Shown in pieces: positions 35,182-63,931 of a DNA stretch of 64,000 nucleotides. The DNA is from a virus (taxonomy: Duplodnaviria; Caudoviricetes). Positions within the stretch are counted from its first letter, which is position 1, and every line of letters begins with the position of its first letter. A model generated the notes under the pieces. That model saw nothing but the letters and a program-made list of their open reading frames with translations. It was not told where the DNA came from and did no database searches. The position numbers and the translations under genes are program-made. The stretch spans positions 1-64,000 of the IMG/VR virus record IMGVR_UViG_3300002220_003854, one strand, 5' to 3'.

Positions 35182-36978
35182 ATGAAATTACAAGAATTAT
35201 ACGAGGGGGTTGCTCCCAAACTTCCAGGTGCTGCCGGCGGAGTGCAAATAATGACTCCACAACAATTTGTTGCCACGAACGCAGGGGATGAAGAACCTAG
35301 CTCAAAGCAAGATGACAATGAAGATATGACGGAAGGCTCAATGGCCGAAGTTGGATATTCTGATCAATTAGGCAAATTGAATGTCCAGGATTCTGTAATT
35401 TTAGCTAGTGCTAAACAAGTCGGTACGATAAGCCAGAAACCGGTAATGAAGTACGAGCAAGGCAACACTACATTATTTTTCTTTACGGAAGATGACAAAA
35501 TTTCGGCTCTAGTATTACTATCAGATCACAACAAATTGAGAGCAATTAAAAACTTCACTGGACAATCTGGACAAATATATGCTTTGATAAATTACATTGT
35601 CAATATTGCTAACACCAAATTAATAATAACTCCGGATGAACCATTGACTAAAGAAGGGTTTCAGTGGGTTGCTAAATTGATTAAAAATCCTGCTGGGCTA
35701 AAAATATTAGACCTTAACGGAGAACCCGCGAATATAGATTCACTGCGCACTGAGTGGCTAAAATCAAAATCTACTCAAGGCACCGAAACCGGTAACACTG
35801 GAATAATTATCAGCGAATCGTCTCGTCAATGGAAAATGAAGCTAAAAGAAAATGAAGCTAGGCTTATGCCACACATTTACTTTAATGTATCAACTACTAA
35901 CAAGCAAGGTATCGCAGAAGCAACCAAACTCCCAGCAAGTACCCGAGAATTAAAAGGACAAGAATTACAAGATTACCTAGATCGTATTCGCGAAAAAGAA
36001 AAAAAGAAAACTGACAAATATAAACTACCTTATATACATCGTAGTAGTGTATTAGGTTATTATAATGAAGAAGGTAAAAAATACGACACCGACGCCATCA
36101 AGGATGCGTTGAGACAGAGACCAAAAAAACTACTAAAGCAAAACGAGAAGATGAAGCACAGTAATGGAGAATTAGAACAGTTCTTCAATATTGGATTCGC
36201 TGCATTGACCGGGGTTGCATTAGACGAACAGACAAACGAAATAATTATTGTCAATACGTGTCCTGGCGCCGGTAGTTGTAAAATAGATTGCTTTGCTATG
36301 AAGGGCGGTAAAATCCAATTTGCTGGGCCATGGTTAAGTGACGGTAGAATATTATCATTCTTGTTGAATGACCCAGATGGATTCTTTAGTAAACTAGATG
36401 CAGAGATTAAGAAAGAAGAAAAGCTGGGTGATAAAGGTGGGTATACTGTGACTATACGTTGGCATGATGCAGGAGACTTCTTTAGCCCCGAATACACTGA
36501 TTTGGCATTCAAACTTGCTAAGGCTAACCCACATGTTCTGTTTTATGCATACACAAAAATTGCTAATGTCGTGTTAGCAGACAAACCTGCAAACTTTATA
36601 ATCAACTGGAGTGAAGGTGCTCACCCAAGTCAAGAAAAACAAATCAAAGCAGGAGATCCTAGTTTAGACCAAACGAAGAACAGTCGAATCATACCAAGTA
36701 GTATGTTCTACGATTTGTTAGTTAAGGACGAAAAGAAAAACTTAGTTAAGGGTCCAGACGGCCAATGGCAAGTGATACCTGATAAGTTACCTGAACTAAA
36801 ACAACGTTTAGCAAAAGCATACAACATCAGCCCTAATAGCATATTAAGTTATAGCGAATGGGATACAAAGGGTAAAAGAATTCCAAATATGAAATGGAAT
36901 GACATCATTACCCCAGGTGAACCTGATATCACTGCGAGAGATCCTGGTGTATTGAGTACTTTGTTATTGAAACATTAA
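35182..36978 (+). CDS. multidomain protein with C-terminal Gp88-like Cys-triad domain
   Basis: MKLQELYE start; TCPGAGSCKIDCFA and RWHDAGDFFS motifs. Confidence 0.7.
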   Translation: MKLQELYEGVAPKLPGAAGGVQIMTPQQFVATNAGDEEPSSKQDDNEDMTEGSMAEVGYSDQLGKLNVQDSVILASAKQVGTISQKPVMKYEQGNTTLFFFTEDDKISALVLLSDHNKLRAIKNFTGQSGQIYALINYIVNIANTKLIITPDEPLTKEGFQWVAKLIKNPAGLKILDLNGEPANIDSLRTEWLKSKSTQGTETGNTGIIISESSRQWKMKLKENEARLMPHIYFNVSTTNKQGIAEATKLPASTRELKGQELQDYLDRIREKEKKKTDKYKLPYIHRSSVLGYYNEEGKKYDTDAIKDALRQRPKKLLKQNEKMKHSNGELEQFFNIGFAALTGVALDEQTNEIIIVNTCPGAGSCKIDCFAMKGGKIQFAGPWLSDGRILSFLLNDPDGFFSKLDAEIKKEEKLGDKGGYTVTIRWHDAGDFFSPEYTDLAFKLAKANPHVLFYAYTKIANVVLADKPANFIINWSEGAHPSQEKQIKAGDPSLDQTKNSRIIPSSMFYDLLVKDEKKNLVKGPDGQWQVIPDKLPELKQRLAKAYNISPNSILSYSEWDTKGKRIPNMKWNDIITPGEPDITARDPGVLSTLLLKH

Positions 36979-36979
36979 T

Positions 36980-37792
36980 ATGAGAGCCATAGAATTTTTA
37001 CAAGAATCTGAAGTCGTTCAAGAAATTGAACGTCTTGATCCTACAGATTATCAGGGAGGAAAAAACTCCTTAAGTGATATGCAAACAGGAAAGCAAGTGA
37101 ATCCTTTACCGGGCGGTAGCGGTTTACTGTATTCAATTGGTCCCGGACGACACAATCATTATGCTATCAAACTGTGGGATCCAAAAGGTCCTGAGTTTGT
37201 CAAGGGCTACCCTAAACCTATCAGAAAACCAGATGAAGACAAGTGGGAATACCAAGATAGGATATATCGATGGGAAGCACTACAAGCAGCCAAAAATAAA
37301 AAGATGCCCGGTCAATTAATCGGTGAATTAACGCTCGACTCTGCTTCTTATTTTCCACTAAAAGATGCAGTGAAAGTTGATACGATTACAATAGACGAAG
37401 ATTATCGCGGATTAAGCCTTGCTAAAGCTTTATATGGGATAGTATTGACTATTATGAAGCGTCCATTGCTAGCTGGCGAGTTGCAGACACCTGGTGGTCG
37501 TAAAAATTGGGTCAGTTTAAACCAAATACCTGGTGTCGAAATGAAGGGGTATATGGTATTAAAATCGAATGACTTCACAGATGAAACAATCGACACTATT
37601 ATGGGCGAACTAGGAGGACAATACATTGGTAAACATAATATTGCAGAAAAGGAATACTTTGCATTTGACGTTCAACCTAATACTACCAACCAAGAACTAG
37701 AAGCTTATGTTAAAACACGCATTAACAAGGTGTATTCTGATAGTTATCGCGATATAACAACTGGATTATACGCGGTATGGGAAGGCCAATAA
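36980..37792 (+). CDS. GNAT-like protein with capsid-targeting-like N-terminus
   Basis: MRAIEFLQE; V.TITIDEDYRGLSLAKALY acetyl-CoA motif A; QTPGGRKNW. Confidence 0.65.
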   Translation: MRAIEFLQESEVVQEIERLDPTDYQGGKNSLSDMQTGKQVNPLPGGSGLLYSIGPGRHNHYAIKLWDPKGPEFVKGYPKPIRKPDEDKWEYQDRIYRWEALQAAKNKKMPGQLIGELTLDSASYFPLKDAVKVDTITIDEDYRGLSLAKALYGIVLTIMKRPLLAGELQTPGGRKNWVSLNQIPGVEMKGYMVLKSNDFTDETIDTIMGELGGQYIGKHNIAEKEYFAFDVQPNTTNQELEAYVKTRINKVYSDSYRDITTGLYAVWEGQ

Positions 37793-37793: not shown

Positions 37794-38273
37794 GTGAGAA
37801 TCACTGAATTCGTAACTGAAGCATTTGACTCTGTGTATAAGTATGAACGCAGTATGGATAGTGGGTATTTCTATGACAATAAAGGTAAATTAATATCTGT
37901 CATCTTTGACGAATTGAGTTCAGATTTGTATATCTGGGCTGTCTCGTTCAAAAGCGAGAATACGTTTCAGTTAACAAAAACAGGGGATCAGTTCAAGATA
38001 TTAGCTACTGTTATTGCGATCATAAGAGAATGGGCTAGTCAAGCTAAACCTGCATTATTAACTTTCAGTTCTAATAAAGAAGACGGTAGCCGAAGCAAAA
38101 CATATCAAGCAATGGTCAACCGACTTGCACCTACGATAGGTTATGTAGATGTAACCAATAATATAGCCTTGCTAAGAGACCAAAACAAGCAGCAGTGGGT
38201 AAATAAAGTTAGGCGCGCACATTCAAATAGTGATATTTTCGTACTAGCTAGAACTGATCAACTACTAAAATAA
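37794..38273 (+). CDS. hypothetical protein (possible GNAT-like) with capsid-targeting-like N-terminus
   Basis: MRITEFVTE; TGDQFKILATV..SRSKTY. Confidence 0.6.
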   Translation: MRITEFVTEAFDSVYKYERSMDSGYFYDNKGKLISVIFDELSSDLYIWAVSFKSENTFQLTKTGDQFKILATVIAIIREWASQAKPALLTFSSNKEDGSRSKTYQAMVNRLAPTIGYVDVTNNIALLRDQNKQQWVNKVRRAHSNSDIFVLARTDQLLK

Positions 38274-38282: not shown

Positions 38283-38939
38283 ATGAAAATAACTGAAATT
38301 TTAACCGAAGCACAAATGTCACCTGAGATTAAAAAAATAATGGGCGATAAAGGATACAAGTATATATCTCGGGGTCAAGACCAAGACGTTTATCTTTCCC
38401 CGGATGGAACTATTCTAAAGATATTTGGCTGGGACCGTGATAAAGGTAGCTCTGGGTTTACTAGAGCGCAAGGAAGCTTTATAGCATTTGCAAATTATTG
38501 CAAAAAAAATCCCAACAATCAGTTCTTGCCCGACTTTAGTGACTGGGCCACATTCGAATTTGATGGTAAAACATACTTGCAGATTAAAACTGAAAGATTA
38601 TTTCCACTAAGTGGCGACTGGGAATATTTGGGTAACGAGCTAGGAATCTTCGTAGATAGCTACATTGAAAGGTATGGGGCTACCGAAGGATTAAAAGTAT
38701 ACATAGACAAATTTGAGGGCAGCCAAATTAGAAGCAGAGATCAAGCTAGCTTGATCATAATGATGCTAGGAAAAGACGGATTAACGTTATTTGCAAAGAC
38801 AGTGGATGATTTGAGCAAGATAGCTAAACAAAAAGGGTATGGCTTAGATTTGCATAGTGGCAACTTTATGTTCGGTAGCGACAGTCATTTAGTAATCAAT
38901 GATCCGTTCTTTACAGGAAGCTTCAGGGGCTTAACTTAA
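38283..38939 (+). CDS. protein kinase-like enzyme (APH/RIO-type)
   Basis: ISRGQDQDVY, ILKI, DLHSGNFM, VINDPF; MKITEILTE start. Confidence 0.8.
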   Translation: MKITEILTEAQMSPEIKKIMGDKGYKYISRGQDQDVYLSPDGTILKIFGWDRDKGSSGFTRAQGSFIAFANYCKKNPNNQFLPDFSDWATFEFDGKTYLQIKTERLFPLSGDWEYLGNELGIFVDSYIERYGATEGLKVYIDKFEGSQIRSRDQASLIIMMLGKDGLTLFAKTVDDLSKIAKQKGYGLDLHSGNFMFGSDSHLVINDPFFTGSFRGLT

Positions 38940-39595
38940 TGAAATCAATTGAATTCACCGAAGCGGAGTCGAAAACTAGTGCTAGCAAAGAGATTAGAAG
39001 TACATTGAGAAAAGCTGGTTATAAATTATTAGGAAGCGGTGCTGATGCCACAGTGTGGGCTAAAAAATCAGGACCTGTCACTAAGATAATAATGCCAGAC
39101 GATCACCAAGGCGCCGGCAGCGCCGGCGATACTTTTATGAAGTTTTATGAATTCTGTCTAGAAAATCAAAACATTAGCAATTTACCCAGATTCTCAGGCA
39201 ACGAGGCGTCCGTATTTCAAGCAGATGGTAAAGATTATATAATGGTAACTATGGAGAGACTTAAACCTATACCTGAAGGAAGTTTTGAAGAAGCAATGGT
39301 ATGGCAACTAAGCGACTTAGCCACAAAGCGAATGACATGGAAACAAGCATTAGAAATAGTGCGCGACCCAAATGAATGGATGACATTCGATCATAATTCT
39401 CAAATAATTGATAGGATAAATTCAATGTCTAAGAAAGACATACTAGAATATGAAGTTTTGTTTAAATTAATGACCTTACTTTATCATAAGGGCAAAATTA
39501 ATAAAGTAGGGTGGGACTTACATACCGAGAATGCCATGATGCGTGACGATGGAACCATAGTAATAACTGACCCATGGTTCTCATTGGTAGTTTAA
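38939..39595 (+). CDS. protein kinase-like enzyme
   Basis: LGSGADATVW, VTKI, DLHTENAM, VITDPW; MKSIEFTE start. Confidence 0.8.
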   Translation: MKSIEFTEAESKTSASKEIRSTLRKAGYKLLGSGADATVWAKKSGPVTKIIMPDDHQGAGSAGDTFMKFYEFCLENQNISNLPRFSGNEASVFQADGKDYIMVTMERLKPIPEGSFEEAMVWQLSDLATKRMTWKQALEIVRDPNEWMTFDHNSQIIDRINSMSKKDILEYEVLFKLMTLLYHKGKINKVGWDLHTENAMMRDDGTIVITDPWFSLVV

Positions 39596-39600: not shown

Positions 39601-40923
39601 TTACCACTCAAACAAACTTTCTTCTGCAGTGGGCACAAATGCAGGATCTTTAGATAAGTACGTATCCTCATCTGTGTATATTACCCTGAACTTATGTTTA
39701 TTAGTGAGAACACTACGAATATCATCAATGCAAATAATCTTTCGATCCAACCCAGTGATATAGTCACATAGCTTCACTGTTGTTTCATTGCAGATTCTTG
39801 CTGTATTACTGGTAGACTTTGAAGGAGCAAAATCAGTGAAACACTTATTCCATTTATGGAAGACTTGGCTTTCTTGTTGCTTCGCGTGCTTTATAGATTC
39901 TAAGTTATACCATAACTCACTAGTGTTAAAGGCTTCATATAGTTCTAACGCCCGTGTAGCCATATCCTTCTTGGTGCAAGTGTAGAAAAAATCCTGATTA
40001 AAGTTTTTAGTCCACCGTTGATTTTCTAACACTAAAGTAGGTAACTGTATGTGTTGCTCGTGGAAAGCCATACCGTAACTTTCTACGGTGCTTGGGTTGA
40101 ATCCTATCCTAGCACTAGTAATAAAATCTACTTTTTCTTTCCCTACAATACTAGCACGAACATCGTATTGCACCCCTAGTTTTTTGAGCTTATCTTCAAA
40201 CTTTTTAACGCCATTCGGGCTAGTCATGACTTTAGCAGGTAATTTTGTTTGTTCGATTAAGCTTATAAACAAATCAGGATTCTTTCCTTCTTCCCATCTA
40301 CCTATGAATAGCACGCCCTCGCGGGGTTTATGATGTTCTTCCAAAAGAAGAGATTCTGTGATTGGAATAGGTAAATGCCATGCACCGCACAGACTAAGTT
40401 CGTTAAACTTACTCTGTGTACCAACATACATCCCACTAATTTCGAGTTGCTTTCGCATCATTTCATTAGTTGAATCCAAGAATGGATTCTTTGTATTTTT
40501 GAAAATCTGACTTTCTAAGTGTGTATAAGCTATGATTTGAATAACATCTTCTAGTCCCATGGTACTTGCTACTTGAACTGTTTCGTATGTGTTACAGATT
40601 AGCACATCATAGATGTTATGCTCTAATGCTTCGATTATTGCATTGCGAAAGTTTGCCATTCTTTCATAGCAGAAGGTATCACCGTACATAAAAATATTAC
40701 TATGATCAGTGTACCTCAATGATTCTAACGGAGCAATAACATTTGCCTTTAGTGATTTGACAAACTCATTATCATGTGGTAGTTTATCAGTGATAATATC
40801 TACTTTGATATTGTACTTATCCATTAATTCGCAAAAGCTTTTTGCAAATTGCCCTATGCCCCCATGAGGGATGAGGGTTTGATGGCTGATCAAAAACCCA
40901 ATTCTTTTGTCGTAAGTTCTCAT
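39601..40923 (-). CDS. glycosyltransferase, GT-B (GT4-like)
   Basis: PHGGIGQF, LFIGRWEEGKNP, ESYGMAFHE. Confidence 0.8.
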   Translation of the reverse strand: MRTYDKRIGFLISHQTLIPHGGIGQFAKSFCELMDKYNIKVDIITDKLPHDNEFVKSLKANVIAPLESLRYTDHSNIFMYGDTFCYERMANFRNAIIEALEHNIYDVLICNTYETVQVASTMGLEDVIQIIAYTHLESQIFKNTKNPFLDSTNEMMRKQLEISGMYVGTQSKFNELSLCGAWHLPIPITESLLLEEHHKPREGVLFIGRWEEGKNPDLFISLIEQTKLPAKVMTSPNGVKKFEDKLKKLGVQYDVRASIVGKEKVDFITSARIGFNPSTVESYGMAFHEQHIQLPTLVLENQRWTKNFNQDFFYTCTKKDMATRALELYEAFNTSELWYNLESIKHAKQQESQVFHKWNKCFTDFAPSKSTSNTARICNETTVKLCDYITGLDRKIICIDDIRSVLTNKHKFRVIYTDEDTYLSKDPAFVPTAEESLFEW

Positions 40924-40927
40924 TTTG

Positions 40928-41782
40928 TTACGTATTCCATGCGTTTTTGAAAATGTCACAATGAAGTCTAGCACTATAGCGCCAGCCCTTATTCATTGCC
41001 ATTTCAGCAACTTTTCTAGCATTAGAGTTATATACCTCAAAAGTACCTCCAACTGGCATCAAGTAAATTGGACCATCAAAGCCCCTTTTCTTGTACTCAT
41101 TAACCGCTTCTTCCGCTTCTTGAACATCTTCTAATGTAGAGACTACGAACTTTAGATAAACAAATCCATATAGCTTATACTGCGCAATTACCTCTGGTTT
41201 TATCGCATTATCCCAAGCTTCGCCCGATGAACTAAGTTTAGGGCTAACACTGAAAGTTAATGCATGTTTTGTTCTGTTCTTTGCCCATTCAGTAAAGAAT
41301 TCCCTAGATTCACTAGTAAGCATTTGCGTTCCGTTTGTTTCAAACGTCAACTCTTGTAATGATTGCATTTTTTCATGCGAAAGAAGACTAGGATAACTGC
41401 GTTGCCAACCCAGTAAAGGTTCGCCGCCTGTGATCACTAAATGCTCATCGCACCAACGATTGTTGGGTAGTAAATCCATGATTTTATCAGCAATAGAATC
41501 GGTGCTGAGCATAGGACTAAGATGCTTGAAACGAGGATCCCATGATGCATAGGAATCGCAACCAGTACTGACTAGTGGTAAAGATGTATATTCTTTTATA
41601 TTAGCTACGTCAATACGGTGTCTTTCGTCACTCAATTGACCTTTAGGCATTCCAAATCCACTGCAGGTGAAGTTACAACCAAATGTTCGTAAGAACACGG
41701 ATGGGACTCCCATGTACCTGCCTTCTCCTTGTATTGAAAAAAAAAAAAAAAGCTCGGAGACCTTTAACTTCGAGTTATTCAT
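40928..41782 (-). CDS. queE: 7-carboxy-7-deazaguanine synthase (radical SAM)
   Basis: SIQGEG, FLRTFGCNFTC..CDS, VITGGEP, FETNG, SVSPKL, RLH. Confidence 0.9.
   Translation of the reverse strand: MNNSKLKVSELFFFFSIQGEGRYMGVPSVFLRTFGCNFTCSGFGMPKGQLSDERHRIDVANIKEYTSLPLVSTGCDSYASWDPRFKHLSPMLSTDSIADKIMDLLPNNRWCDEHLVITGGEPLLGWQRSYPSLLSHEKMQSLQELTFETNGTQMLTSESREFFTEWAKNRTKHALTFSVSPKLSSSGEAWDNAIKPEVIAQYKLYGFVYLKFVVSTLEDVQEAEEAVNEYKKRGFDGPIYLMPVGGTFEVYNSNARKVAEMAMNKGWRYSARLHCDIFKNAWNT
41737..41751. repeat. A15/T15 homopolymer inside queE
   Basis: 15 consecutive A on plus strand; encodes LFFFFS. Confidence 0.9.
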
Positions 41783-41803
41783 TTTAAATTTTCCTTTATT
41801 AAA

Positions 41804-43114
41804 TTATTTTGCTTTATTCGCTTTGTCGAATTTGTCCAAATCTAAAATTTGGTAATGATCTTTTACTGTAGGCCATTCGTATATATTAATGTTTTTTTGC
41901 TTGTTTGTCAACTTATTTAGGCAAGGAAATAAGAACTTTTTATTTCCTAAACCAACATAGAGTGTCTTGTCAAATTGATCTTTTGGTATTTGTTTACGTT
42001 CACCAGTCAACTTGTTAATTACGTTAACTTTTCCTTTGTTAGGTCCTACATACCTAGCGCGGTTATTATCAAATTCTTCTTTACTTACCTGGATATATGT
42101 GTTGGTAGTTTGATCCATTACTAATCGCAAGCCTTTGGTCTGCCCAACATATTCACCAGATGAAAACTCTTTTTTTGATACTAGTACGTTATTTCCTGCT
42201 TTGTCTTTTGCTAAGACTTTTCCCTTTGTAGCAGTGAGATACCTATTACGATCTTTGTTGTATTCTTCTTTTGTTATTTGGATTGATTGATTGGTTGTTG
42301 TATCCAACACACATAGTTTACCCTTAAGAAGATGCGAGTGTATTGAATAGTGTGTATTAGCATGATATTCATCCAAAGATACTATGTATTTTTCTTCTGC
42401 ATCGTTTATACAAGTCACTGAATGGTTTTGTATATGTTTCAGTCTTTTGTACCCGTATTCTTTGTTCTTTGTTCTTGCTTCTGATTTAGTGATTTTTAAA
42501 ATGTCGTTTGTTTCTAAATCTAGAAATTGGTATCTACATAAGTTAATATCTTTATTGCCGTGAGGAAAATCCTCAAAACTTAATCTAGACTTATACCTAT
42601 CCTTGTTTTCTTGGTATTCTTTAGATGTGATATAGACCCAGGTGTTACTGTGAGTATCAAATACATACGTCTTTCCAGTTGTGTGAAATTTGTATTTTGT
42701 TTGATTAGCGTATTCTTCTTTAGTTAAAGTGATGATATTTCCGTTTTCATCATGCACTCTAACTTTATTTGTGGTGTGTGCTTTAAGCTGATCATATACG
42801 TCTGTCTTTAATTTTTGATATGTTCTACTGGTAATGCGTCCTTGAAATCCTTTAAATTCTAATTTAGGATTCTTGTTATTCATCTGTAAAAATGCACTTG
42901 ATATCGGCAAAAAAGATGGGTATATTTTCCATAATAACCAATGAGCTAAAAAATGTTCACGCAACGTGAGTTTAATCAAATTACCAGGATCATCGGTTCC
43001 TTTCAAACATTTAGGTTGAATGTGATGTGTCTCTGTGTACTCACTTAATTCCCTAGGTTCTAATTTTCTGATATGGTCAATGAACGCTTGATACCTTTTT
43101 TTGTAATCTACCAT
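41804..43114 (-). mobile_element. HNH homing endonuclease with repeated C-terminal modules
   Basis: ETHHIQPKCLKG..NLIKLTLREHFLAH; ~8 (K)VxxxD..xxSKEEY repeats; CTAAATA at 43134-43140. Confidence 0.8.
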
Positions 43115-43223
43115 TATCCTTCTCCCTGTAATGTATTTAGCCAAGAAAAAGGATAGTTCATTCGGTAAACTTAATATCTTTTTGCAAAATGCAATCGTTC
43201 GACTCAAAGTGAATGCTAGTGTG

Positions 43224-44402
43224 TCAATATTTCGGTGCTAATACTTGTTCCGAAATTAATTTTGCTGTGTATGGTGCTAGTGTCCAGCCTAAGTGACCGT
43301 GCCCTGTATTATAGTACACACGATTGTTTCTCTTGCTTCTACATACAATGGGCATCATGTCGGGAGTCATTGGTCTGAGGCATGCCCAACTACTGTAATC
43401 GTGTGTGTTAATTCTAGGGAAATTAGTATGAACCCATTTTACTAATGGTTCTATACGGTCTCGTCTGATATCGTAGTTTTCACCAGTTAATTCGGCAGTT
43501 CCAGCAACACGGAAACGATTGCCCAAGCTTGCAGTAACTATCTTTGCTTGGTCATCAAGTAAACTGACTTTAGGTAAATCTTGTTCATCTACTTCATTGA
43601 TAGTGATACTGTAGCCTTTTACCGGATAAATTGGTAACTTGTCACCAATTTCTTTTGCTAACTTGACGCTACCAACACCTGCACTAACAACAATGGCATT
43701 GTATTCATCTAGGGTGTGTAAGCTAGCATTATGCCCAGTCCTAAATATGACTTTGTATTTTGCACGCAAAACTTCTGATAGTTGATAACAGAATTTATGA
43801 ATGTCGCCAGTCCAATCTGAAGGAGTCCAAGCTCCACCATAAATATCGTGAATATTTCGTAGAGTAGGATCTAGTGCTAATACTTCATCAGGAGATAGTA
43901 AGTCCCATTCACATCCATTATCATTATAAATGTTCTTGGCTTTTTGCGCAGATTCCCAGTAATCCTGTGACTTATAGATATGCAAGATACCAGATTTGCT
44001 TTGATCAAAACTTAGTTTCTCTTGGTCTATCAAATCATAATATAGTTTTCGTGACTCTATTCCCAACTGTATTGTCTTAGCCGTGTTTCTAGCATAATCG
44101 TTGTTTGCTGTATGATATAAGAACTTGGCTAGCCATACTGCTTTATCCCAATCTAAGCTTGGTCTAATCAATAGGGGTGCATCTTTCTTTAGCATCCACT
44201 TTATACCTTTGTATACATTAGCCCATGTATTCCATACTTCGCTATTACTAACGCTTACTTGTCCTCCATTGGCGAAACTAGTACGCATTGCCGGATAGCG
44301 TTCCTGCTCATATACTGTTACTTCATATCCTTCTTTGGCTAGGTAATATGCAGTAGTTACCCCTGCAATGCCAGCACCAATAACTGCTACGTTCTGTGTC
44401 AT
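43224..44402 (-). CDS. dadA: D-amino acid dehydrogenase (FAD)
   Basis: GAGIAG, TSFANGGQ, YPVKGYS, GTAE, WACLRPMTP, NTGHGHLGWT. Confidence 0.9.
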   Translation of the reverse strand: MTQNVAVIGAGIAGVTTAYYLAKEGYEVTVYEQERYPAMRTSFANGGQVSVSNSEVWNTWANVYKGIKWMLKKDAPLLIRPSLDWDKAVWLAKFLYHTANNDYARNTAKTIQLGIESRKLYYDLIDQEKLSFDQSKSGILHIYKSQDYWESAQKAKNIYNDNGCEWDLLSPDEVLALDPTLRNIHDIYGGAWTPSDWTGDIHKFCYQLSEVLRAKYKVIFRTGHNASLHTLDEYNAIVVSAGVGSVKLAKEIGDKLPIYPVKGYSITINEVDEQDLPKVSLLDDQAKIVTASLGNRFRVAGTAELTGENYDIRRDRIEPLVKWVHTNFPRINTHDYSSWACLRPMTPDMMPIVCRSKRNNRVYYNTGHGHLGWTLAPYTAKLISEQVLAPKY

Positions 44403-44438
44403 ACATTAACTCCGTTGATATTATTATTCTGTACACCG

Positions 44439-45038
44439 TCAATAGTTGAAGTAATCTTCTGTTGTGGATCCTGGTCCATACCAAACTATATATCTTTTGT
44501 GCATTGTAGATTGAATTCTAGTCAAAGATTCATTTATCGTTTCATTTGGTGGTATTGCCAACCATCGTGTGTTGGGCTTGTTATCGTAAATCATGTCTGG
44601 CGTTGCGTCAGGTATGATTTCATCAGTTTGGGTATCGTACTCTACAACATCGTATCGTTGATTATTTTTAAGTCTTAGCCAAAGATTCTTTGATCCATGG
44701 GGTCCACCTGTGTTGGTAGCGTCTGACATGACTTTCACTTTATCATTCATGATAGCATAATCATACAAGAATGTACCGTAACCCTGACCTTTATACGCTT
44801 GGGCCAATTGAGATAAAGCTACGACCCAAATATCTTTTTTGTGTTTGTATAATGATAGGTATCCCACCAGATTATCCTTAGGATCAAAAAGACCATAATT
44901 CAATTCTGCGCCTTCATGAGTTTTTTTCAAAGTTAAATCTTTTATCTTTGTTACCGCAACTGAGTCAGCAAATTCAAATTGGAATTTATCCAAATATTCG
45001 TCTCTAGGCGGATTAGTAATGATTTCTCCTAATTTCAT
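44439..45038 (-). CDS. GNAT-like protein with capsid-targeting-like N-terminus
   Basis: MKLGEIIT; YKGQGYGTFLY motif A. Confidence 0.65.
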   Translation of the reverse strand: MKLGEIITNPPRDEYLDKFQFEFADSVAVTKIKDLTLKKTHEGAELNYGLFDPKDNLVGYLSLYKHKKDIWVVALSQLAQAYKGQGYGTFLYDYAIMNDKVKVMSDATNTGGPHGSKNLWLRLKNNQRYDVVEYDTQTDEIIPDATPDMIYDNKPNTRWLAIPPNETINESLTRIQSTMHKRYIVWYGPGSTTEDYFNY

Positions 45039-45538
45039 GCAAATAGGTCTTCATTCCATTCGCGGTGACCTTCTCTAAATGCCATGTTACTTTGTGTCTC
45101 GCGTACTTCTACGCGATAACACCATAGACGTGCTGCTTCACCGGGTCCCCACATATCTGGAATGTAAACTCCATTAACATATTTGTAAATCATGTCAGCT
45201 AAACTTTCACAACCTAAATTAGGCAAGATTGTTAGTTTCATGATGCCACGTTTTTCAGCCTCTTTGTACCAATCTAAATGTGGATCTGAACTAGCTACTA
45301 AAGTAGTGTGGTCAAATTGACTCTCTAGCGTTTGCTTTAGTTCCTTCAAGCCACCATAATCTGCTGCCCAGCGGCGTGCATCTAAATCATTAGTCCCGAA
45401 ATAAAACTTCATGCTAAACGCATATCCGTGCAGAAATTGACAATGACTATCGGCTTTATACTGTCTATAGGCACATGGAAAAGCGTTGTGATACTCTTTT
45501 GTGGAAGTCCATTTATATGTTACTGGTTGATATGTCAT
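45035..45538 (-). CDS. queD: 6-carboxytetrahydropterin synthase
   Basis: HCQFLHGY, DYGGLKELK..FDHTTL, CESLA, VRET. Confidence 0.85.
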   Translation of the reverse strand: MTYQPVTYKWTSTKEYHNAFPCAYRQYKADSHCQFLHGYAFSMKFYFGTNDLDARRWAADYGGLKELKQTLESQFDHTTLVASSDPHLDWYKEAEKRGIMKLTILPNLGCESLADMIYKYVNGVYIPDMWGPGEAARLWCYRVEVRETQSNMAFREGHREWNEDLFA

Positions 45539-45565
45539 ATTATTCTTTCGTTATTCTAATATTGA

Positions 45566-46243
45566 TTATTCAGTAAATGATACCATTCTCATGAACTCTG
45601 CTCTGGCTGCCGGATCAGTTTTGAACCCACCACCAAGCTTAGAAGTAATAGTAGAAGCCGAGGTATCCTCAACCCCACGGGATGACACGCATAGATGAGT
45701 AGCATCGATAACAACTGCGATGTTTTCGGTTTCTAGGATGTAGCTCAGTGCATGATAAATTTGCTCAGTAAGCCGTTCTTGAATCTGTGGACGACGACTA
45801 AAATATTCAACGATTCTCGGCATTTTGCTTAGTCCTAACACCTTTTTATTAGGCACGTAAGCTATAGTAGCTTTGCCTACGATCGGCAAAATATGGTGTT
45901 CACATAACGATTGCACAGTTATGTTTCGTTCCACAACCATTTCATCGTAGTTCATTTTATTTTCTACTGTAGTACATTTTGGGAATGCGTCGTAATCTAG
46001 TCCCCACATGGTCTCGTTTACAAACATTCGGGCTACTCTTTTAGGAGTTTCGGCAAGTGAATCGTCTGACAAATCAAGACCAAGAACATCCATGATTTGT
46101 TTGAAACTAGCTTCAATCAGAGAGATGCGGTCTTTTCGATCCAACCCGTTATGCTTTACGGGCGTTTCTACGCCCATTTTAACTAAGTGTTCGTGTACTT
46201 TGCGACCCAGTTGTGGGTCTACTTTTTGCTTATTAAATGACAT
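45566..46243 (-). CDS. folE: GTP cyclohydrolase I
   Basis: ETPKRVA, SLCEHH, GLSK, QIQERLT, HLCVSSRGV. Confidence 0.95.
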   Translation of the reverse strand: MSFNKQKVDPQLGRKVHEHLVKMGVETPVKHNGLDRKDRISLIEASFKQIMDVLGLDLSDDSLAETPKRVARMFVNETMWGLDYDAFPKCTTVENKMNYDEMVVERNITVQSLCEHHILPIVGKATIAYVPNKKVLGLSKMPRIVEYFSRRPQIQERLTEQIYHALSYILETENIAVVIDATHLCVSSRGVEDTSASTITSKLGGGFKTDPAARAEFMRMVSFTE

Positions 46244-46258
46244 TTTTAGAATCCTTCC

Positions 46259-47113
46259 TTAATCGGATATGAGTTTTGAAGTGTTGTCACCGTTGTGTGA
46301 CAGAATGTATTTAGTCGAATCAACTAATTCTTCTATTATTTTTTCAGTGGTATATAATGGTTCATATCCCAACTTTGCTAGTTTATCACAAGACATGTAA
46401 AATGATACTGGCTTTTGGTCAACATCATAGGTGTATTCTACCATTGACGTAGAACCAAAGTATGTCTTCGCATGAAGTACTGCATCTTTGAATAGTATTG
46501 GCTTACTATTTCCAATATTATATATTTGATTCAGTTCTCCTTTTTCCATAACTAAATTTACTGCCCTACAAAGATCAGATGCGTGAATGTAATCTCTGTA
46601 AAAATTACCACCATTAGCTAATTGGATTGGCTGATTGTTGATTAATCGTTGCACCAAGAATGTTAATACATTCTTTTTACTAGAAGCTTTTTTGTCTCCT
46701 GGCCCAATTACGTTTGCAAACCTAAGTATTCGATACTTTATATTAAATGTTTTGCAGTATGTAATTAACAGTTGTTCGGCTGCCCTTTTGGTAATAGAGT
46801 AGAATCCTATTGGATCACACAATGAATCTTCTGAGCCTGGGGCTGGTACATTTCCGTAGACGAACCAAGAACTTGCAAAATTAAAAGTTAAATTTTTGCC
46901 CTTGCAATTTTCTAAAACTCTAATCAAATGAGTTAGATTGGTGTCTATGTCAACATAGGGGTCAGTAAATACGTTATAATTGTCAGTGGTACTTATAAGG
47001 TACAAAACTTCGTCTGTAACCGGAACCAGTGAACTGCGGTCATTTATAACCGACGAATACATCTTAGCATAATGTGATCCAATAAATCCCGTACCCCCGA
47101 AGATGTTTACCAT
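46259..47113 (-). CDS. NAD-dependent epimerase/dehydratase (extended SDR)
   Basis: GGTGFIG, SSWFVYG, YSITK, RDYIHASD. Confidence 0.85.
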   Translation of the reverse strand: MVNIFGGTGFIGSHYAKMYSSVINDRSSLVPVTDEVLYLISTTDNYNVFTDPYVDIDTNLTHLIRVLENCKGKNLTFNFASSWFVYGNVPAPGSEDSLCDPIGFYSITKRAAEQLLITYCKTFNIKYRILRFANVIGPGDKKASSKKNVLTFLVQRLINNQPIQLANGGNFYRDYIHASDLCRAVNLVMEKGELNQIYNIGNSKPILFKDAVLHAKTYFGSTSMVEYTYDVDQKPVSFYMSCDKLAKLGYEPLYTTEKIIEELVDSTKYILSHNGDNTSKLISD

Positions 47114-58196: not shown

Positions 58197-58577
58197 TCAA
58201 TTAATGGTAAACTCTTTGTCCGGAGTATAAAAGTTTGGTTTACGCATGATAGTTTTAGCAACCAATTCTTTGTGATTGGCTCTATCTTTGATGACGAACG
58301 GCAAGTTAATCTTAGTCAATAAATCTTTCATCACGGCCTCTGGATCATCCATAGATGCAATCTTTTTACCGTTACGCTCATATTCTTTTTTGAATAACCG
58401 AATTAGTTCTGCCGCTGTTATAGGCTTGCCGTTTCTTTCGTCATTTACTCTTTCTAAGAAATGTTTAGAGAAGTTAACATCGACTCCCAATGATTTCCAT
58501 AAGCTATCAGCGAACCTTTCCACTTGGGCTAGTTCACTAAAGGATATTTCTTCTTTCATAAATTCTTTTGCTCTCAT
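58197..58577 (-). CDS. hypothetical protein with capsid-targeting-like N-terminus
   Basis: MRAKEFMKE; FSKHFLERVND.R. Confidence 0.7.
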   Translation of the reverse strand: MRAKEFMKEEISFSELAQVERFADSLWKSLGVDVNFSKHFLERVNDERNGKPITAAELIRLFKKEYERNGKKIASMDDPEAVMKDLLTKINLPFVIKDRANHKELVAKTIMRKPNFYTPDKEFTIN

Positions 58578-59704
58578 TGGAATATGTTCCTATTCTGTTT
58601 GCCGTATATTTTTATAAGTTTTCCAGCTACCATGTCAGCTAATAATTCTATTGGACTGCCTGGATAACTACTACCGGGTTTTATCATATCTAATTCACCC
58701 TGCCTAACATGAGTTAATTCATGTGCTACAGTTCGTAGTATATCGACTAAATTTCTATTTTTAGCATAAACCCAAATTTTGTCATCACCCACTGTATGCC
58801 CGCCAGTATGATGATTTGTTCTCGCTTCGACAGTGTCCATACTCAATACCACTTTGGGTTGTGTCTGTAAGTTTAGCTTAGAAGATGCCCAATTCGTAAA
58901 TTTCTCTACTTCTTTTTGTAAATTAGAGTGGGTTGTATTTTCTTTTAACAACTTTGTCCCCACATTGAAATTATCGGGCTTGATTAATGCAATATACGAT
59001 AGCGTTTTCTCTAACTCATTGCTGTTATTAAACATCAAGGTGTTTATCAAATCGTTACCTAGCTCAGTTGTACTAAACTCATACTTATCCGGGAACACAG
59101 TTCCGTCATCAAATTCAATTTGCTTAACGCCGGCGTCGTCGTGAACAACGTTTACTATAGTTTTTGGATTTTTAAATCCCCTGCAAATCACTGTACGAGA
59201 ATAAATGTCTGCAATAATTTGCAATATACAGATCGATGAACCAACTTTGATATTGGCGACATTAGAATTTGATATTTTTTTAAGTTGGGAATAAAAAGAA
59301 GTTAATTCGTCATTAACATCTTCATTCAGAGTATCTAATAGGTTGTTAGTCCATTCAGTGACTACATTTATTTTAGGAGTTCCATAATACTCTCTAGTTA
59401 GTCGAGAATAAAATTCTCTGATTTCAGAAATATTGTTGTCCTTGCCTGTTCTTTTTAGTCGAGGTTTTTTTATGTCATTAGAAGTAAATGAGGTTTCATC
59501 TAGTTTATTCTTTATCCAGTGATCTGGTGTGTTTTTGTACTTTTTAACAAACAAGTCATGCAATGCTTTACCGGTGATATCATGTTTAGCTGCTATTTTT
59601 TGCATCAACCGGTCAATAGTATTGTAGTCATGTTTTTTCAGACTAGGTAATTTTGTTGCTAATTCACTAGCAGCAGATTCTAAAATAAATTCAGTTGACT
59701 TCAT
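58574..59704 (-). CDS. modular protein with C-terminal HExxH zincin domain
   Basis: MKSTEFILE; RTVAHELTH; late promoter 59710-59717. Confidence 0.7.
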   Translation of the reverse strand: MKSTEFILESAASELATKLPSLKKHDYNTIDRLMQKIAAKHDITGKALHDLFVKKYKNTPDHWIKNKLDETSFTSNDIKKPRLKRTGKDNNISEIREFYSRLTREYYGTPKINVVTEWTNNLLDTLNEDVNDELTSFYSQLKKISNSNVANIKVGSSICILQIIADIYSRTVICRGFKNPKTIVNVVHDDAGVKQIEFDDGTVFPDKYEFSTTELGNDLINTLMFNNSNELEKTLSYIALIKPDNFNVGTKLLKENTTHSNLQKEVEKFTNWASSKLNLQTQPKVVLSMDTVEARTNHHTGGHTVGDDKIWVYAKNRNLVDILRTVAHELTHVRQGELDMIKPGSSYPGSPIELLADMVAGKLIKIYGKQNRNIFQ

Positions 59705-59733: not shown

Positions 59734-60165
59734 TCAGCACCAAGACTTTTTTGCTTCGCCGAAGTAAGGTCTAGCTAATCCACGTTGAATTAATAATCCA
59801 CGTAAGCTTTTTCCGTCTAATATAACGTCACCCAATACTCTTCCGCCGTATTTGTCCCATCCCATAAGCATTATCTGACGATGCTGTGCGCTTGCAATCA
59901 TTTGAGTTGTAAATTGCGTAGCTTGTTTTCCCTTTTCTGCTTCTAATGCACATTTAGCTTTGGCTCCTTTTTCAGGGGTATCCACTCCGTAGATTCTAAG
60001 TGCTAGTTCTGATTTCAACGGAGAAGGTAAAAATTCAGCTTTAAATGCTACTGTATCACCGTCTATTACTCTAGTGATAGGATAGTTGTATAATACACCT
60101 GACGGATCCGCGAACACAGATGTAGATAGAAATAGCAAAAAGATAATTAGTTTTTTCATAATCAT
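59734..60165 (-). CDS. thermonuclease (SNase-like) with signal peptide
   Basis: RVIDGDT, RIYGVDTPE, DKYGGR.LG; MKKLIIFLLFLSTSVFA leader. Confidence 0.9.
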   Translation of the reverse strand: MIMKKLIIFLLFLSTSVFADPSGVLYNYPITRVIDGDTVAFKAEFLPSPLKSELALRIYGVDTPEKGAKAKCALEAEKGKQATQFTTQMIASAQHRQIMLMGWDKYGGRVLGDVILDGKSLRGLLIQRGLARPYFGEAKKSWC

Positions 60166-60267: not shown

Positions 60268-60687
60268 TCAACTGATTTTTACTTTCTGCAATACATTACT
60301 AATTAATGTAAACTGGTTAGCTAACTTTTTATAGAACAGTTCAGGTGGTCTGCTAGTCCAAGCCCTATGCTCTAACGCTATTTTTCCCATATCGATATAG
60401 TAGTTTTTACTTGGCCAACGACGACTATTCAATGCTAAGCCGTCGATCAATAAACATTCTTCTGCTATTTCTTGAAAATGCTGTTTTCTAATTTCACCTG
60501 ATTTGTTTGTAGCTGCTAGCATTCTAATTGCTATAGTATCGGCTGGAATGTTTGGATTTTCCATATATTTGGCAAACGTATGGACCACGAATGCTTCTAC
60601 TTCATGTTCTAAATTTATGCTAGCTTTACACTCTGCTTCAAGTATTACCTCGTAACTATATTTCACATAGGTTAAAAAATGTTTCAT
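60268..60687 (-). CDS. hypothetical protein
   Basis: ORF track. Confidence 0.65.
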   Translation of the reverse strand: MKHFLTYVKYSYEVILEAECKASINLEHEVEAFVVHTFAKYMENPNIPADTIAIRMLAATNKSGEIRKQHFQEIAEECLLIDGLALNSRRWPSKNYYIDMGKIALEHRAWTSRPPELFYKKLANQFTLISNVLQKVKIS

Positions 60688-60716: not shown

Positions 60717-61589
60717 TTACATTAAGAATATCTGGCCAACACTGCTAGCCAATACATCATCGAACATCAATTCCATGTCTCTGGCAAGCATCTCACTGGC
60801 ATTATTGCGTTCACTTTCGTCTCTGAATTCAGGTTTGATATTCATGTATTTTGTGGGAGTGCCCCATGCTTTACGTCCATAACCTAAATTAGTAGGTAAT
60901 GAGTTAAATGTAACTTTGCCAGTACCTAAATATTGTGCAAATATTTCATATAAGAATTCATATGGTCTTTTTATATCGTTGCTGCGGCTACTACGTTGTG
61001 TACCGATAGCATTGAATAATGCATTATACTCTGGTGTTAGGTCAAATTGCATTGATCCCTGTGATTGAAAACCGCCCCGTCTTTGTGATATTTTACCGTA
61101 AAATTCTGCTAGAGTATTATTTACTGCATTGAAGAAATGTTTTTCGGCTTCAGTCCAGGCATGCCACTTTGCGTTTTTTCTCGCGCCTGCTTGTATGGCA
61201 TGCCCAAATCTATGCGCCATCATCCAGGGCGTTAGCATTACTTTTCTATCGCCCTGGTTTCCTACATATACTACAGTAATAGCATCTTCACTTCCGTTAA
61301 CTATTTCTGATGCTTGATCTCCGAATATTTTTGTAACCTGATCCGGGGTCATTGGTCCATATTCACTATATTTACCGGTGCCGGGAACATTGCTGAAGAA
61401 CAAGCGAAAATCATAAGGAGTTTGTTCAAAAAACTTAGTAGCCTTTTCTATATTTTTAGGATGCGGTACTAACTTTTTATCAGGGCCACGAAATGGACCA
61501 GGTTTGGTAAAGTCGCCAAACGTCTTATAAGTCGATAACGCCATTTCATCGACATTACTCATCTCTTTTATAAATTCAGTTGATTTCAT
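60717..61589 (-). CDS. hypothetical protein, HxxGH zincin-like motif, capsid-targeting-like N-terminus
   Basis: MKSTEFIKE; WMMAHRFGHA..YEIFAQY. Confidence 0.65.
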   Translation of the reverse strand: MKSTEFIKEMSNVDEMALSTYKTFGDFTKPGPFRGPDKKLVPHPKNIEKATKFFEQTPYDFRLFFSNVPGTGKYSEYGPMTPDQVTKIFGDQASEIVNGSEDAITVVYVGNQGDRKVMLTPWMMAHRFGHAIQAGARKNAKWHAWTEAEKHFFNAVNNTLAEFYGKISQRRGGFQSQGSMQFDLTPEYNALFNAIGTQRSSRSNDIKRPYEFLYEIFAQYLGTGKVTFNSLPTNLGYGRKAWGTPTKYMNIKPEFRDESERNNASEMLARDMELMFDDVLASSVGQIFLM

Positions 61590-63265
61590 GTTATAACCCT
61601 ATACCCAAATCCTGCGGGACTAGATCGTCCGATTCTAGTCAAGAAACTATTAAATCCTAGCCGAGCACTTTCTTGATCGTTTGCCCTAGCTATAAAAGTA
61701 CCAAGACTTGTGTTAGGGTCAGATACTAAATAAACTTCGTATCTTTGATTGCCTGCGCCTGCGGTATTAGTTGGAGCAACTTCTGGTTGAGTTATACCTT
61801 TGCGTTTTTCTTGGGCAGTTCTGATCAAGCTAATTAGTTGTGCTTTTGGTAGCTCGCCGGCAGCATAATTTGCAAAGTATGCAAGAATGTCATTGTTAGA
61901 TTTTGGTTGTAATAATACATATAGTTTCTTTAAATAATCTTTGCGAAACTTATTCGGATCGCATGCTGCGTCTAATGCAACTACAAATCTCAACAATGTG
62001 TTTTCTAATTTAGATATGTCTTCATCTAACCAATTGCCGCCTGGACTACGAAATTCTACATAACCATCATGCGTATTAATGCTAGTATATTTGTCCGTCA
62101 TACCAGTATGAATCAATTTAGAAGCCAACACCGACAGGCCTGATTTCATTTTATCTAAAACTTCGCCGACTCTGGCTGGGTTGTTACTTATGAACGTACC
62201 AATCTTTTGTGCCGCACTTTTAGCGTATGCATTACCCATTCTGTTATACTGATCTAATACGTACTCGTCACCTAATAACAACGCTAACTTTACGTAATCT
62301 AACTTTTCTATTGAGAAATTAGGTACGCTTACATTCATATGTAATCCAGTAGATTCGTTAGTATAACAACCCTTGTCTTTAGCCCAAGCTACGATCTTGT
62401 TTAAGTCGATTAACATCGCATCAATGGGCAAGGGCGGGCTGACGAATTCTAATCCACCATCATTACTCTCGTCCGGGTCAAGACTGCTATCTGGTTCAAT
62501 GACATATTGATCAGGCTTTCGTTCTGCTCCATGATATGTTGTCGAATATTCTACTTTACGACCTATCGCTGTACTGAATTCGTTTGCTACGGTTTTGACA
62601 TCTAACTCCATATCACCCTGAGGAGAAGTCCAATGTGGCCAAATTAAATCATACTGGGATTCTACATCCTGCATAGAATTTATGCCTTGGTCTCGTAACC
62701 AATCTGTTTCAGAAGGCTCCTCTACACTTTCTCGCCATGAGTCGTAAGCTCTATTGTACAGCCGACCTTGATCTTCCCATTCACTGTCGAGCCATTCTTC
62801 TTTTAGTTCCTCAACTCTTTTTTGCACCTTCTCGTCGTCAGGGTCTGTTATCTCTAATTCTTCCATGGCTGTTTCAATGGCGTCTTCTTCGTCAAAGTAA
62901 TCTTCTACGTATTCGTTAAATTCATCTCGTCCTTCTGAATTCCATTGTTCAACTATTTGCTCTTCCGCCCATTCTTGATATTCGTTCTCCAGGTCTCTTA
63001 TCACCCGCCGCACTGCACTTGAGCTATTATACTCCCCTGCGAAAAAATTATAAATATCGGCAAAATCTACTACTCGTTCGTCTTGATCGTAATCGCGTTC
63101 TTGGTCAACATCTTCGTCTTCAATTGCTATGTCAGGAACAATCATTTCAAATTCCATACCAGCTAATGCATTAGTTTGTGCGGCAAGTTTTCTTAGGTTA
63201 CTAGGACTCATTACTACTTCGTCTAGTAACTGCGGGGTTTCAATGACAAATTCTTTAAATCGCAT
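61586..63265 (-). CDS. putative amidoligase (COOH-NH2 ligase type) with acidic insertion
   Basis: GMEFE, EPDSSL, GLEFVSP, NESTGLHMN, KYTSIN, VEFR; MRFKEFVIE start. Confidence 0.8.
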   Translation of the reverse strand: MRFKEFVIETPQLLDEVVMSPSNLRKLAAQTNALAGMEFEMIVPDIAIEDEDVDQERDYDQDERVVDFADIYNFFAGEYNSSSAVRRVIRDLENEYQEWAEEQIVEQWNSEGRDEFNEYVEDYFDEEDAIETAMEELEITDPDDEKVQKRVEELKEEWLDSEWEDQGRLYNRAYDSWRESVEEPSETDWLRDQGINSMQDVESQYDLIWPHWTSPQGDMELDVKTVANEFSTAIGRKVEYSTTYHGAERKPDQYVIEPDSSLDPDESNDGGLEFVSPPLPIDAMLIDLNKIVAWAKDKGCYTNESTGLHMNVSVPNFSIEKLDYVKLALLLGDEYVLDQYNRMGNAYAKSAAQKIGTFISNNPARVGEVLDKMKSGLSVLASKLIHTGMTDKYTSINTHDGYVEFRSPGGNWLDEDISKLENTLLRFVVALDAACDPNKFRKDYLKKLYVLLQPKSNNDILAYFANYAAGELPKAQLISLIRTAQEKRKGITQPEVAPTNTAGAGNQRYEVYLVSDPNTSLGTFIARANDQESARLGFNSFLTRIGRSSPAGFGYRVIT

Positions 63266-63280
63266 ATGGCTTAACTTTTA

Positions 63281-63931
63281 TCATGATCCGTCACCTGCAT
63301 AGAACGGATCACTGATTACAATATGTCCGTCGCTACCTAGCATGAAGTTACCACTGTGTAAATCTAAATACCTTAATCCTAGCTTTTTGCCTAATTTCAT
63401 TAAATCATAAATAGTATCCCATAGCATGTTAAGCCCATCTTCGCCTAAATGCATGACCAATTGCTCAGTTTCTTTAGAAGTATAGGCTCTTGCCATGAGG
63501 TCAGATAAGAATTTTTTTCTATCATCAGGAGTCGCAAAGCGTTCAGCGCGATCAGCAATCACTGATAATACCTCATTCCACCCGGCTGCAGCACCTGTAA
63601 AAGGAAACAATCTTTCCATTTTAATCTGCAGATAAGTTCGACCATTGAACTGAAACGTTGCCCAATCTGTAAAGTTTGGCAGAAATGGATTGGTTGGATG
63701 AGCGAGACAGTAATCTGCGTAAGCTTTAAATATTTTCTGACTTTTTGTAAGTTGTGACACTCCCCCACCAGACTGACGACTTGAACCAAATATCTTCAAT
63801 ATCATTCCGTCTGGGGCTAGATATGCAGCTTGATCAACGCCACTGCTCAAATATTTATATCCTTTGTCTACTAAAATCTTCTTGATATCAGGATCCATAT
63901 AAGATTCTAATAATATTTCTTGAATTTTCAT
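63281..63931 (-). CDS. protein kinase-like enzyme, close paralogue of 38283..38939
   Basis: LSSGVDQAAY, DLHSGNFM, VISDPF; MKIQEILLE start. Confidence 0.8.
   Translation of the reverse strand: MKIQEILLESYMDPDIKKILVDKGYKYLSSGVDQAAYLAPDGMILKIFGSSRQSGGGVSQLTKSQKIFKAYADYCLAHPTNPFLPNFTDWATFQFNGRTYLQIKMERLFPFTGAAAGWNEVLSVIADRAERFATPDDRKKFLSDLMARAYTSKETEQLVMHLGEDGLNMLWDTIYDLMKLGKKLGLRYLDLHSGNFMLGSDGHIVISDPFYAGDGS

Follow-up and report, generated by a model that had tools for sequence, protein, structure and literature searches.

The internal proteins of T-even phages are diverse defence proteins whose sole shared part is a short N-terminal capsid targeting sequence (CTS) (PMC3012670, PMC9026906), and the T4 prohead protease gp21 cleaves after Glu within I/LxE motifs (PMC12991175). 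Mapping of the CTS of the T4 internal protein IPIII has assigned a targeting role to residues 4 and 7 and a processing role to residues 8 and 10; an Asp at position 10 blocks cleavage but not targeting (PMC9026906). In the giant phiKZ-like phages (phiKZ, 201phi2-1, SPN3US), a gp21-related prohead protease cleaves many head-internal proteins behind a Glu, and these proteins are delivered to the host by ejection (PMC5694885, PMC9026906); their propeptides are mostly long (>100 residues), with no single shared short tag (PMC5694885). A further class, the multidomain 'polyvalent proteins', is proposed to be delivered with the phage DNA (PMC5512222, PMC7824862). Here we analyze bases 1-64,000 (the window) of a single 87,966-bp IMG/VR virus contig (IMGVR_UViG_3300002220_003854), on which a short tag resembling the T4 CTS stands at the start of otherwise unrelated genes, and compare it with its counterparts in related phages.

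We searched every ATG, GTG and TTG codon in the six frames of the contig (9,241 codons) for the motif M[KR]xx[EQ][FILVM]x{1,2}E. One of the 14 matches is an internal Met in the kinase gene at 38939, and the remaining 13 are the starts of real long open reading frames (ORFs), 11 of them in the window (Table 1) and two just past it (66152 and 67083, both on the minus strand). At all 13 gene starts the tag comprises 8-9 residues at the extreme N-terminus and terminates in [ILVMF]-x-E. Three estimates of the chance expectation (internal motif frequency, shuffled N-termini, pooled composition) give about 0.03-0.1 tagged starts among the 119 called genes, and the maximum reached in 2000 shuffles is two. 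An earlier reading of the window, made from the sequence alone, had counted about 13 genes with the shared peptide on unrelated bodies, with replication and metabolic genes lacking it. The enrichment survives comparison with the shuffled controls, though two of the listed examples (14785 and 44439) are off-motif; the contrast with other genes also stands, no replication, Clp or deazaguanine-pathway gene having a match. The bodies are mostly unrelated as stated, with the tag present on at least 10 unrelated protein families; BLAST comparisons of the tag-stripped proteins recover relations only among the kinases encoded at 38283, 38939 and 63281, and a module common to the product of 35182 and that of the out-of-window gene 64374.

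Codon usage varies between copies of the tag (AAA/AAG, GAA/GAG, TTT/TTC, ATT/ATA/ATC, AGA/CGA) and the 50 nucleotides upstream of the tagged starts are unrelated between copies, which places the conservation, and hence the selection, at the level of the peptide. Most of the tagged starts are coupled to the preceding stop codon (TAAnATG or ATGA overlaps, the latter exemplified by the start of 60717..61589 and the stop of 61586..63265), an arrangement that fits operon-like co-expression. Three of the tags are directly followed by a Met (..FE/M, ..KE/M and ..NE/M), as would be expected if the tag had been added ahead of an older start codon. The 8/9-residue pattern occurs at a density of 14.8 per 100 kb on the contig, as against 3.1 for a complete relative. 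The value for T4 is 1.2, the T4 tag itself being ten residues long and outside the reach of the pattern.

The tag recurs across a clade of large phages. IMG/VR contains 128 relatives of the amidoligase-like gene 61586-63265, on contigs of up to 525 kb; orthologues at 45-55% identity retain the tag, and the flanks of 80 amidoligase loci are rich in the same kind of start. The complete 352-kb relative G002 contains 11 tagged genes, and a DNA pattern scan yields 15 matches against two in the control for a 525-kb relative and six against one for a 340-kb relative. The consensus from 119 distinct 9-residue tags of the clade is M-R-A-x-E-F-[I/V/L]-x-E-[A/S], with K also at position 2 and A or S the most frequent residues after the Glu. 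Position 7, the P3 residue of the site, was left free in the search pattern, yet 113 of the 119 tags have I, V or L there, and the tags therefore obey the gp21 I/L-x-E rule. The phiKZ-type cleavage motif has a small residue (S/A/G), not I/L/V, at P3. While the ejection proteins of those phages are likewise cut after Glu by a gp21-related protease, the tags studied here differ from their propeptides in being 8-9 residues long with I/V/L at P3, and in belonging to a different lineage.

The resemblance to T4 reaches beyond the cleavage site. In the T4 record NC_000866, ipII and ipIII start with MKTYQEFIAE/A (the slash follows the terminal Glu), gp22 with MLKEQLIAE/A, gp24 with MAKINELLRE/S, gp21 with MNEPQLLIE/T and gp67 with MEGLIE, and gp23 carries ..FLTE/AEIGG. 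Clade tags such as MKSTEFIKE, MKSTEFILE and MKSCEFITE align to MKTYQEFIAE with one residue fewer ahead of E-F, such that the F, I/L/V and E of the tag fall on CTS residues 7, 8 and 10. The equivalent of the targeting residue F7 (position 6 of the tag) is F in 84 of the 119 tags, and the equivalent of Y4 is variable, mostly Ala, in this comparison by sequence resemblance. When applied to T4, a generalised leader pattern finds the known gp21 substrates with the leaders given above, the uncharacterised ORF 61.1 and one 54-residue antisense ORF that we take as a chance match, and the 8/9-residue tag pattern gives two chance-level matches. T4 gene 61.1 itself (18966-19130, minus strand; 54 amino acids) starts with MKTFKEFIKE/D, a near-perfect CTS, and from its sequence could encode an unrecognised packaged peptide.

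The protease family to which gp21 belongs, Peptidase_S77, is found in all five complete relatives (340-525 kb; E 1e-24 to 1e-27), where its gene adjoins a scaffold-sized gene and one for a gp23-type capsid protein. The head module of G002 runs in the order portal, a 74-residue protein (MKLFEMFDQ..), an acidic protein, the protease, the scaffold and the capsid protein. Its scaffold carries ..KPLLE/S, and its capsid protein starts with MSKVLLE/S and contains ..QLLAE/SSAG. The S77 protease of the relatives together with these head-protein sites makes a T4-like cleavage specificity plausible in the clade.

Several of the proteins that are tagged singly on the contig are fused in related phages. 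In many relatives the amidoligase module has no separate gene and lies inside ORFs of 1400-2085 residues with the order nucleotidyltransferase (67127-68233 on the contig), zincin (C-terminus of 58574-59704), DUF5661, sometimes DUF6934 (37794), and amidoligase (61586), and the chain sometimes ends, after the amidoligase, in a GNAT-like module (36980) or DUF6934. The five genes joined in these chains are divided on the contig between two clusters that lie 20 kb from each other and on different strands; their union in one protein elsewhere strongly suggests a common destination for the tagged proteins. Pfam matches on the chains include ParB_N, GNAT, NTP_transf_2, and Peptidase_M48 and M78, the last two both on one polyprotein. 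With their zincin, ParB_N, GNAT, nucleotidyltransferase and amidoligase domains, the chains resemble the polyvalent proteins in their published description (Iyer, Burroughs, Anand, de Souza, Aravind 2017, PMC5512222). The present contig differs from that description in having the modules as single genes, each with its own tag, and the sequence-only reading overlooked that its gene set is the split form of the polyvalent proteins of related phages. The passages of PMC5512222 returned by a term search contain no T4-like N-terminal tag, and the tag is thus a candidate for a concrete loading signal. At the internal boundary of the amidoligase, most chains retain a tag-like decapeptide (SLRQEFALLE, SLAQEFELFE, REFSEFVTE), usually after L-x-E, so that the amidoligase tag is kept both at N-termini and inside polyproteins. 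Similarly, the DUF6934 module (AFDQPY..) follows immediately on an [ILV]-x-E in each of its 11 homologues, whether N-terminal or internal.

The three kinases all match a T7 gp0.7-type PHROG, and their alignment displays a Gly-rich loop and DLHxxN and DP motifs; 38283 and 63281 are paralogues at 49% identity. An AlphaFold model of the kinase encoded at 38939 (predicted local distance difference test [pLDDT] 84.6) has PknB, APH(2'') and Pho85 as its top structural matches (probability 1.0) and falls below a pLDDT of 50 only at residues 1-9. The model of the DUF6934 protein encoded at 37794 (pLDDT 77) has residues 1-11 as its sole terminal stretch below 50, and its top structural matches are all GNAT acetyltransferases at weak significance (E about 2e-3), weakly pointing to a GNAT-like fold. 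As both models dip terminally only at the tag, plus up to two residues, the tag is predicted to be disordered, with the fold beginning directly after it. The product of 35182 combines a GP88 domain (PF17338; E 9.5e-23) with a module at about residues 49-249 that shares 37% identity over 208 amino acids with the module of gene 64374; by structure this common module is GNAT-like. The homologue of 36980..37792 is the C-terminal module of the relatives' polyproteins (residues 1483-1713 of the chain L041), on which Acetyltransf_1 matches weakly (E 0.0026). Among orthologues of the amidoligase-family protein, 17 of 19 match PF12224 (best E 2.2e-10). In the zincin gene 58574..59704 the tagged start is an ATG that lies five codons into the longest ORF; orthologues of this gene retain the tag, and its C-terminal domain is the one fused after the nucleotidyltransferase in the chains. 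Searches of Pfam and PHROG with the product of 545..877 gave zero matches, 60268..60687 had no family match, an ESM Atlas search with the 290-residue product of 60717 gave no usable lead, and PDB sequence searches with the 559-, 592- and 598-residue cargo proteins returned no matches.

Table 1. Tagged genes, candidates and an untagged cluster member in the window. The slash follows the last residue of the tag.
Position	Strand	Length (amino acids)	N-terminus	Assignment	Basis
545..877	-	110	MKYDELFE/M	Tagged; body function not assigned	Motif scan
14785..16302	-		Orthologues start MLLRHIFETRIEVLIE/G	Weak candidate, off-motif	Listed by the sequence-only reading
35182..36978	+	598	MKLQELYE/G	Tagged; first of five consecutive tagged genes on this strand	Motif scan
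36980..37792	+	270	MRAIEFLQE/S	Tagged; probably GNAT-like	Motif scan
37794..38273	+	159	MRITEFVTE/A (GTG start)	Tagged; DUF6934 family	DUF6934 E 6.6e-6, just under cut-off
38283..38939	+	218	MKITEILTE/A	Tagged; compact protein-kinase-like	phrog_15752 E 1e-7
38939..39595	+	218	MKSIEFTE/A	Tagged; compact protein-kinase-like	phrog_15752 E 6e-13
44439..45038	-		MKLGEIITN, without terminal Glu	Weak candidate; GNAT-like, within deazaguanine cluster	Listed by the sequence-only reading
58197..58577	-	126	MRAKEFMKE/E	Tagged; phrog_23027, function not assigned	Motif scan and PHROG match
58574..59704	-	376	MKSTEFILE/S	Tagged; C-terminal HExxH zincin domain	HELTH at residue 328
59734..60165	-		Signal peptide	Untagged; staphylococcal-nuclease homologue	SNase E 6.5e-10
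60268..60687	-		MKYSYEVILE/A from alternative GTG start 60666	Possibly tagged; T4-like 10-mer	Start re-reading
60717..61589	-	290	MKSTEFIKE/M	Tagged; function not assigned	Motif scan
61586..63265	-	559	MRFKEFVIE/T	Tagged; Amidoligase_2-family, most widely conserved cargo	Orthologue profile matches
63281..63931	-	216	MKIQEILLE/S	Tagged; compact protein-kinase-like	phrog_15752 E 1.2e-8

Given the above, we favor with moderate confidence the reading that the tag is a T4-type capsid-targeting propeptide, common to unrelated enzymes and removed by a protease; the phage would then probably deliver to the host, along with its DNA, a set of kinases and acetyltransferase-like proteins as well as an amidoligase and a metallopeptidase. 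Under this proposal, which is modelled on T4, the hydrophobic or aromatic part of the tag (E-F) would attach a freshly synthesised protein to the scaffold core around which the prohead assembles, a gp21-family Peptidase_S77 would cut after the final Glu of [I/V/L]-x-E, and the mature enzymes would be retained alongside the DNA in the capsid and pass into the host upon infection. The predicted cargo comprises the three compact kinases, several GNAT-like modules, the amidoligase, the zincin and several proteins without assigned function, and would amount to a split polyvalent protein, with one module per translationally coupled gene, each under its own tag. Targeting, cleavage, packaging and injection are steps that we only infer.

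In common with the T4 CTS of IPII and IPIII and the gp21-removed propeptides of IPI, Alt, gp22 and gp24, the tag is an N-terminal peptide of about ten residues with a Met-Lys/Arg start, an E-F core, I/L/V at P3 and Glu at P1 on otherwise unrelated proteins, and it is accompanied, in the complete genomes of the clade, by a gp21-family protease and a T4-type head module. It departs from T4 in that the tag on the contig is shorter by one or two residues, in that at least 13 tagged genes occur on a quarter-genome as against three to five in T4, in that sizeable enzymes (kinases, GNAT-like proteins, amidoligase, zincin) take the place of small basic proteins as cargo, and in that the same modules also occur as giant fused chains in relatives. 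A comparison of isoelectric points over the tagged proteins found no overall basic bias like that of the T4 internal proteins; the only strongly basic product is the repeat protein encoded beyond the window.

The sequence-only reading had pictured the same loaded arsenal, starting from T4 internal proteins with an MKTYQEFIAE-type peptide, which ipII and ipIII indeed carry. The picture gains from the CTS match, the P3 rule, the S77 protease of the relatives and the disorder of the tag in two models. Its cargo list holds in part: the kinases, GNAT-like proteins and amidoligase are borne out by the PHROG, structure and PF12224 matches, one zincin (58574-59704, with HELTH) is supported where several had been named, and the tagged nuclease-like protein was not found, the SNase homologue at 59734-60165 having a signal peptide and no tag. 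The hydrophobic leader of this homologue and its position in the cluster are conserved in relatives, and from its sequence the phage appears to export a nuclease. Both the SNase homologue and a Dps-like neighbour in the cluster are untagged, on the contig and in relatives alike.

By its gene content, which includes RIIA, RIIB, a T4-type DNA polymerase and a 7-deazaguanine gene set, and by the identities of its polymerase (47-48% to the nearest isolates, Sinorhizobium phage Phosso and Agrobacterium phage Atu_ph07, and 43% to the GAP32/121Q group), the contig is a fragment of an uncultured T4-superfamily jumbo myophage, a relative of the 350-kb class; CheckV estimates its completeness at about 25%. 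The arrangement of genes around the clamp loader, two virion proteins, DnaJ and ClpA is shared with PA5oct, Serratia BF and Atu_ph07. A near-identity DNA search of a phage collection gave zero matches, and a search of the window for transfer RNAs found none.

Several observations weigh against the proposal that the tag is a capsid address. Neither Peptidase_S77 nor a head module is present on this 25% fragment; the gp21-like protease for which the sequence-only reading suggested a check elsewhere in the genome has its counterparts in the five complete relatives, on which that part of the proposal rests. As regards timing at head assembly, promoter scans with TATAAATA and the sigma-70 consensus found no late-type or clear promoter ahead of either cluster. 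Perfect TTGACA-N16-18-TATAAT promoters are confined to the first 26 kb (1695, 2886, 6685, 12898, 14115 and 25556, minus strand) and TATAAATA lies 26 nucleotides upstream of the gene starting at 82606, a distribution that suggests early and late regions as in T4. In the polyproteins, a tag occurs internally only at the boundary of the amidoligase, and in some lineages it has degenerated to ..FK. A strict tag profile found zero internal copies in these chains, and the frequency of [ILV]-x-E per 1000 residues is 12.9 in polyproteins versus 13.7 in other proteins; the idea of a tag at every polyprotein joint was accordingly dropped, which leaves the boundaries of the amidoligase and DUF6934 as the informative ones. 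Likewise, the DNA pattern scan found no tag enrichment in PA5oct, Serratia BF and Atu_ph07 (one, six and four matches, respectively, versus 0-2 in the control, some with stop codons), for which reason the virion mass-spectrometry data of these three phages are not transferable. Finally, the tagged zincin among the cargo could itself be the processing enzyme.

This last point leads to an alternative that we consider unlikely, namely that the zincin of the cargo cleaves the tag in the cytoplasm, where it would serve as a processing linker or propeptide, with no role as a capsid address and with packaging, if any, via another determinant. A tagged HExxH protein (58574-59704) is indeed in the set and its domain recurs inside the polyproteins, one of which also matches both Peptidase_M48 and M78; moreover, autoproteolysis by the metallopeptidase (MPTase) domains of polyvalent proteins has been proposed by Iyer et al. 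2017 (PMC5512222). However, cutting the extreme N-terminus of a single-domain protein would release nothing useful and offers no reason to keep the tag, the conserved M-R/K..E-F lies outside the minimal [ILV]-x-E site, and the likeness to the T4 CTS reaches a targeting residue. Processing by the prohead protease rather than by an internal peptidase is more likely.

An improbable alternative is that the tag serves as a handle for some other partner: a degron or adaptor signal for ClpX, ClpA or ClpP, a substrate site of the amidoligase or the kinases, or a docking helix that brings split modules together. The phage does encode ClpP (14112-14714) and ClpX (18821-20011), with ClpA and DnaJ beyond the window (region 71962-75011; all on the minus strand), and the fusion of the modules in relatives indicates that they act together. 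Nonetheless, a near-identical tag exists in T4 without phage Clp genes, amidoligase or these kinases; PA5oct and Atu_ph07 have the same Clp/DnaJ set without enrichment of the tag; no complementary C-terminal motif was found on the tagged proteins; and neither a degron nor a docking role explains the invariant Glu with I/V/L at P3.

That the motif reflects nucleotide sequence or the needs of translation initiation (an A-rich beginning in genes without a Shine-Dalgarno sequence) or is a functionless relic of common descent is very improbable: although most tagged starts have a weak or no Shine-Dalgarno sequence and are coupled to an upstream stop, and the second codon is often AAA or AGA, the residues stay constant while the codons vary, the tag persists within polyproteins where no initiation happens (points on which the initiation explanation was rejected), and its spread over so many unrelated families is kept in orthologues at about 50% identity.

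Some further starts bear on the range of the tag. The tagged basic protein of 309 amino acids encoded at 66154-67083 (minus strand) contains two repeats of about 49 residues, each after S-I-N-E, and a third K-I-N-E ahead of a DUF3008 end; from this sequence its product may be cut into several small basic peptides. The untagged nucleotidyltransferase encoded at 67127-68233 (minus strand) starts with M-N/D-I-x-E-L-D/E-S, which is tag-like without the terminal Glu and could, by analogy, be a non-cleaved address, since Asp at position 10 of the T4 CTS stops cutting and not targeting (PMC9026906). The conserved 'virion structural protein' at 75523-76071 has only a loose leader. In Atu_ph07 (149292-163984), the amidoligase homologue gp196 starts with MRWQDISSKKLTE and lies two genes from the portal gp198, with gp197 between them, and the neighbouring 77-amino-acid gp199 starts with MKLTELFNPLTE; as far as these sequences indicate, cultured relatives may use a looser leader. 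PA5oct gp213 (MKIKEIILE) was dropped as a candidate, the adjoining annotated 'head maturation protease' looking like ClpP by sequence. Directly adjoining the five-gene tagged cassette, window positions 39601-53116 hold the 7-deazaguanine-type gene set, with a radical-SAM QueE-like gene at 40928-41782 and folE-like and sugar enzymes called from their N-terminal sequence only.

The principle of a targeting peptide on packaged proteins is already textbook for T-even phages (PMC3012670, PMC9026906), and the gain lies in breadth and in the link to polyproteins: what is new is the extent of the tag in an uncultured jumbo-phage clade, its enzymatic cargo and the split-versus-fused relation to polyvalent proteins, on none of which did a literature search find a paper for such a clade. 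As a broader and more tentative proposal, to which we assign a little less than an even chance, the T4 targeting peptide might be an ancient, sequence-readable address code in uncultured jumbo phages of 350-525 kb, placed on a large, rapidly shuffled arsenal of enzymes with two interconvertible forms, polyvalent chains and singly tagged operons. Injected proteins act ahead of any phage gene expression and are prime candidates for anti-defence and host-takeover functions, yet they are normally found only via virion proteomics of cultured phages. A conserved readable tag would nominate the three kinases, the GNAT-like modules, the amidoligase and the zincin for functional tests, and short portable tags suggest themselves for loading foreign proteins into non-T4 capsids. 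If the broader proposal is true, the injected proteome of an uncultured phage would be predictable from its genome alone and polyvalent proteins would gain a concrete mechanism of loading and release; the tag would also connect them with the T4 internal proteins, two ideas that have previously stood apart.

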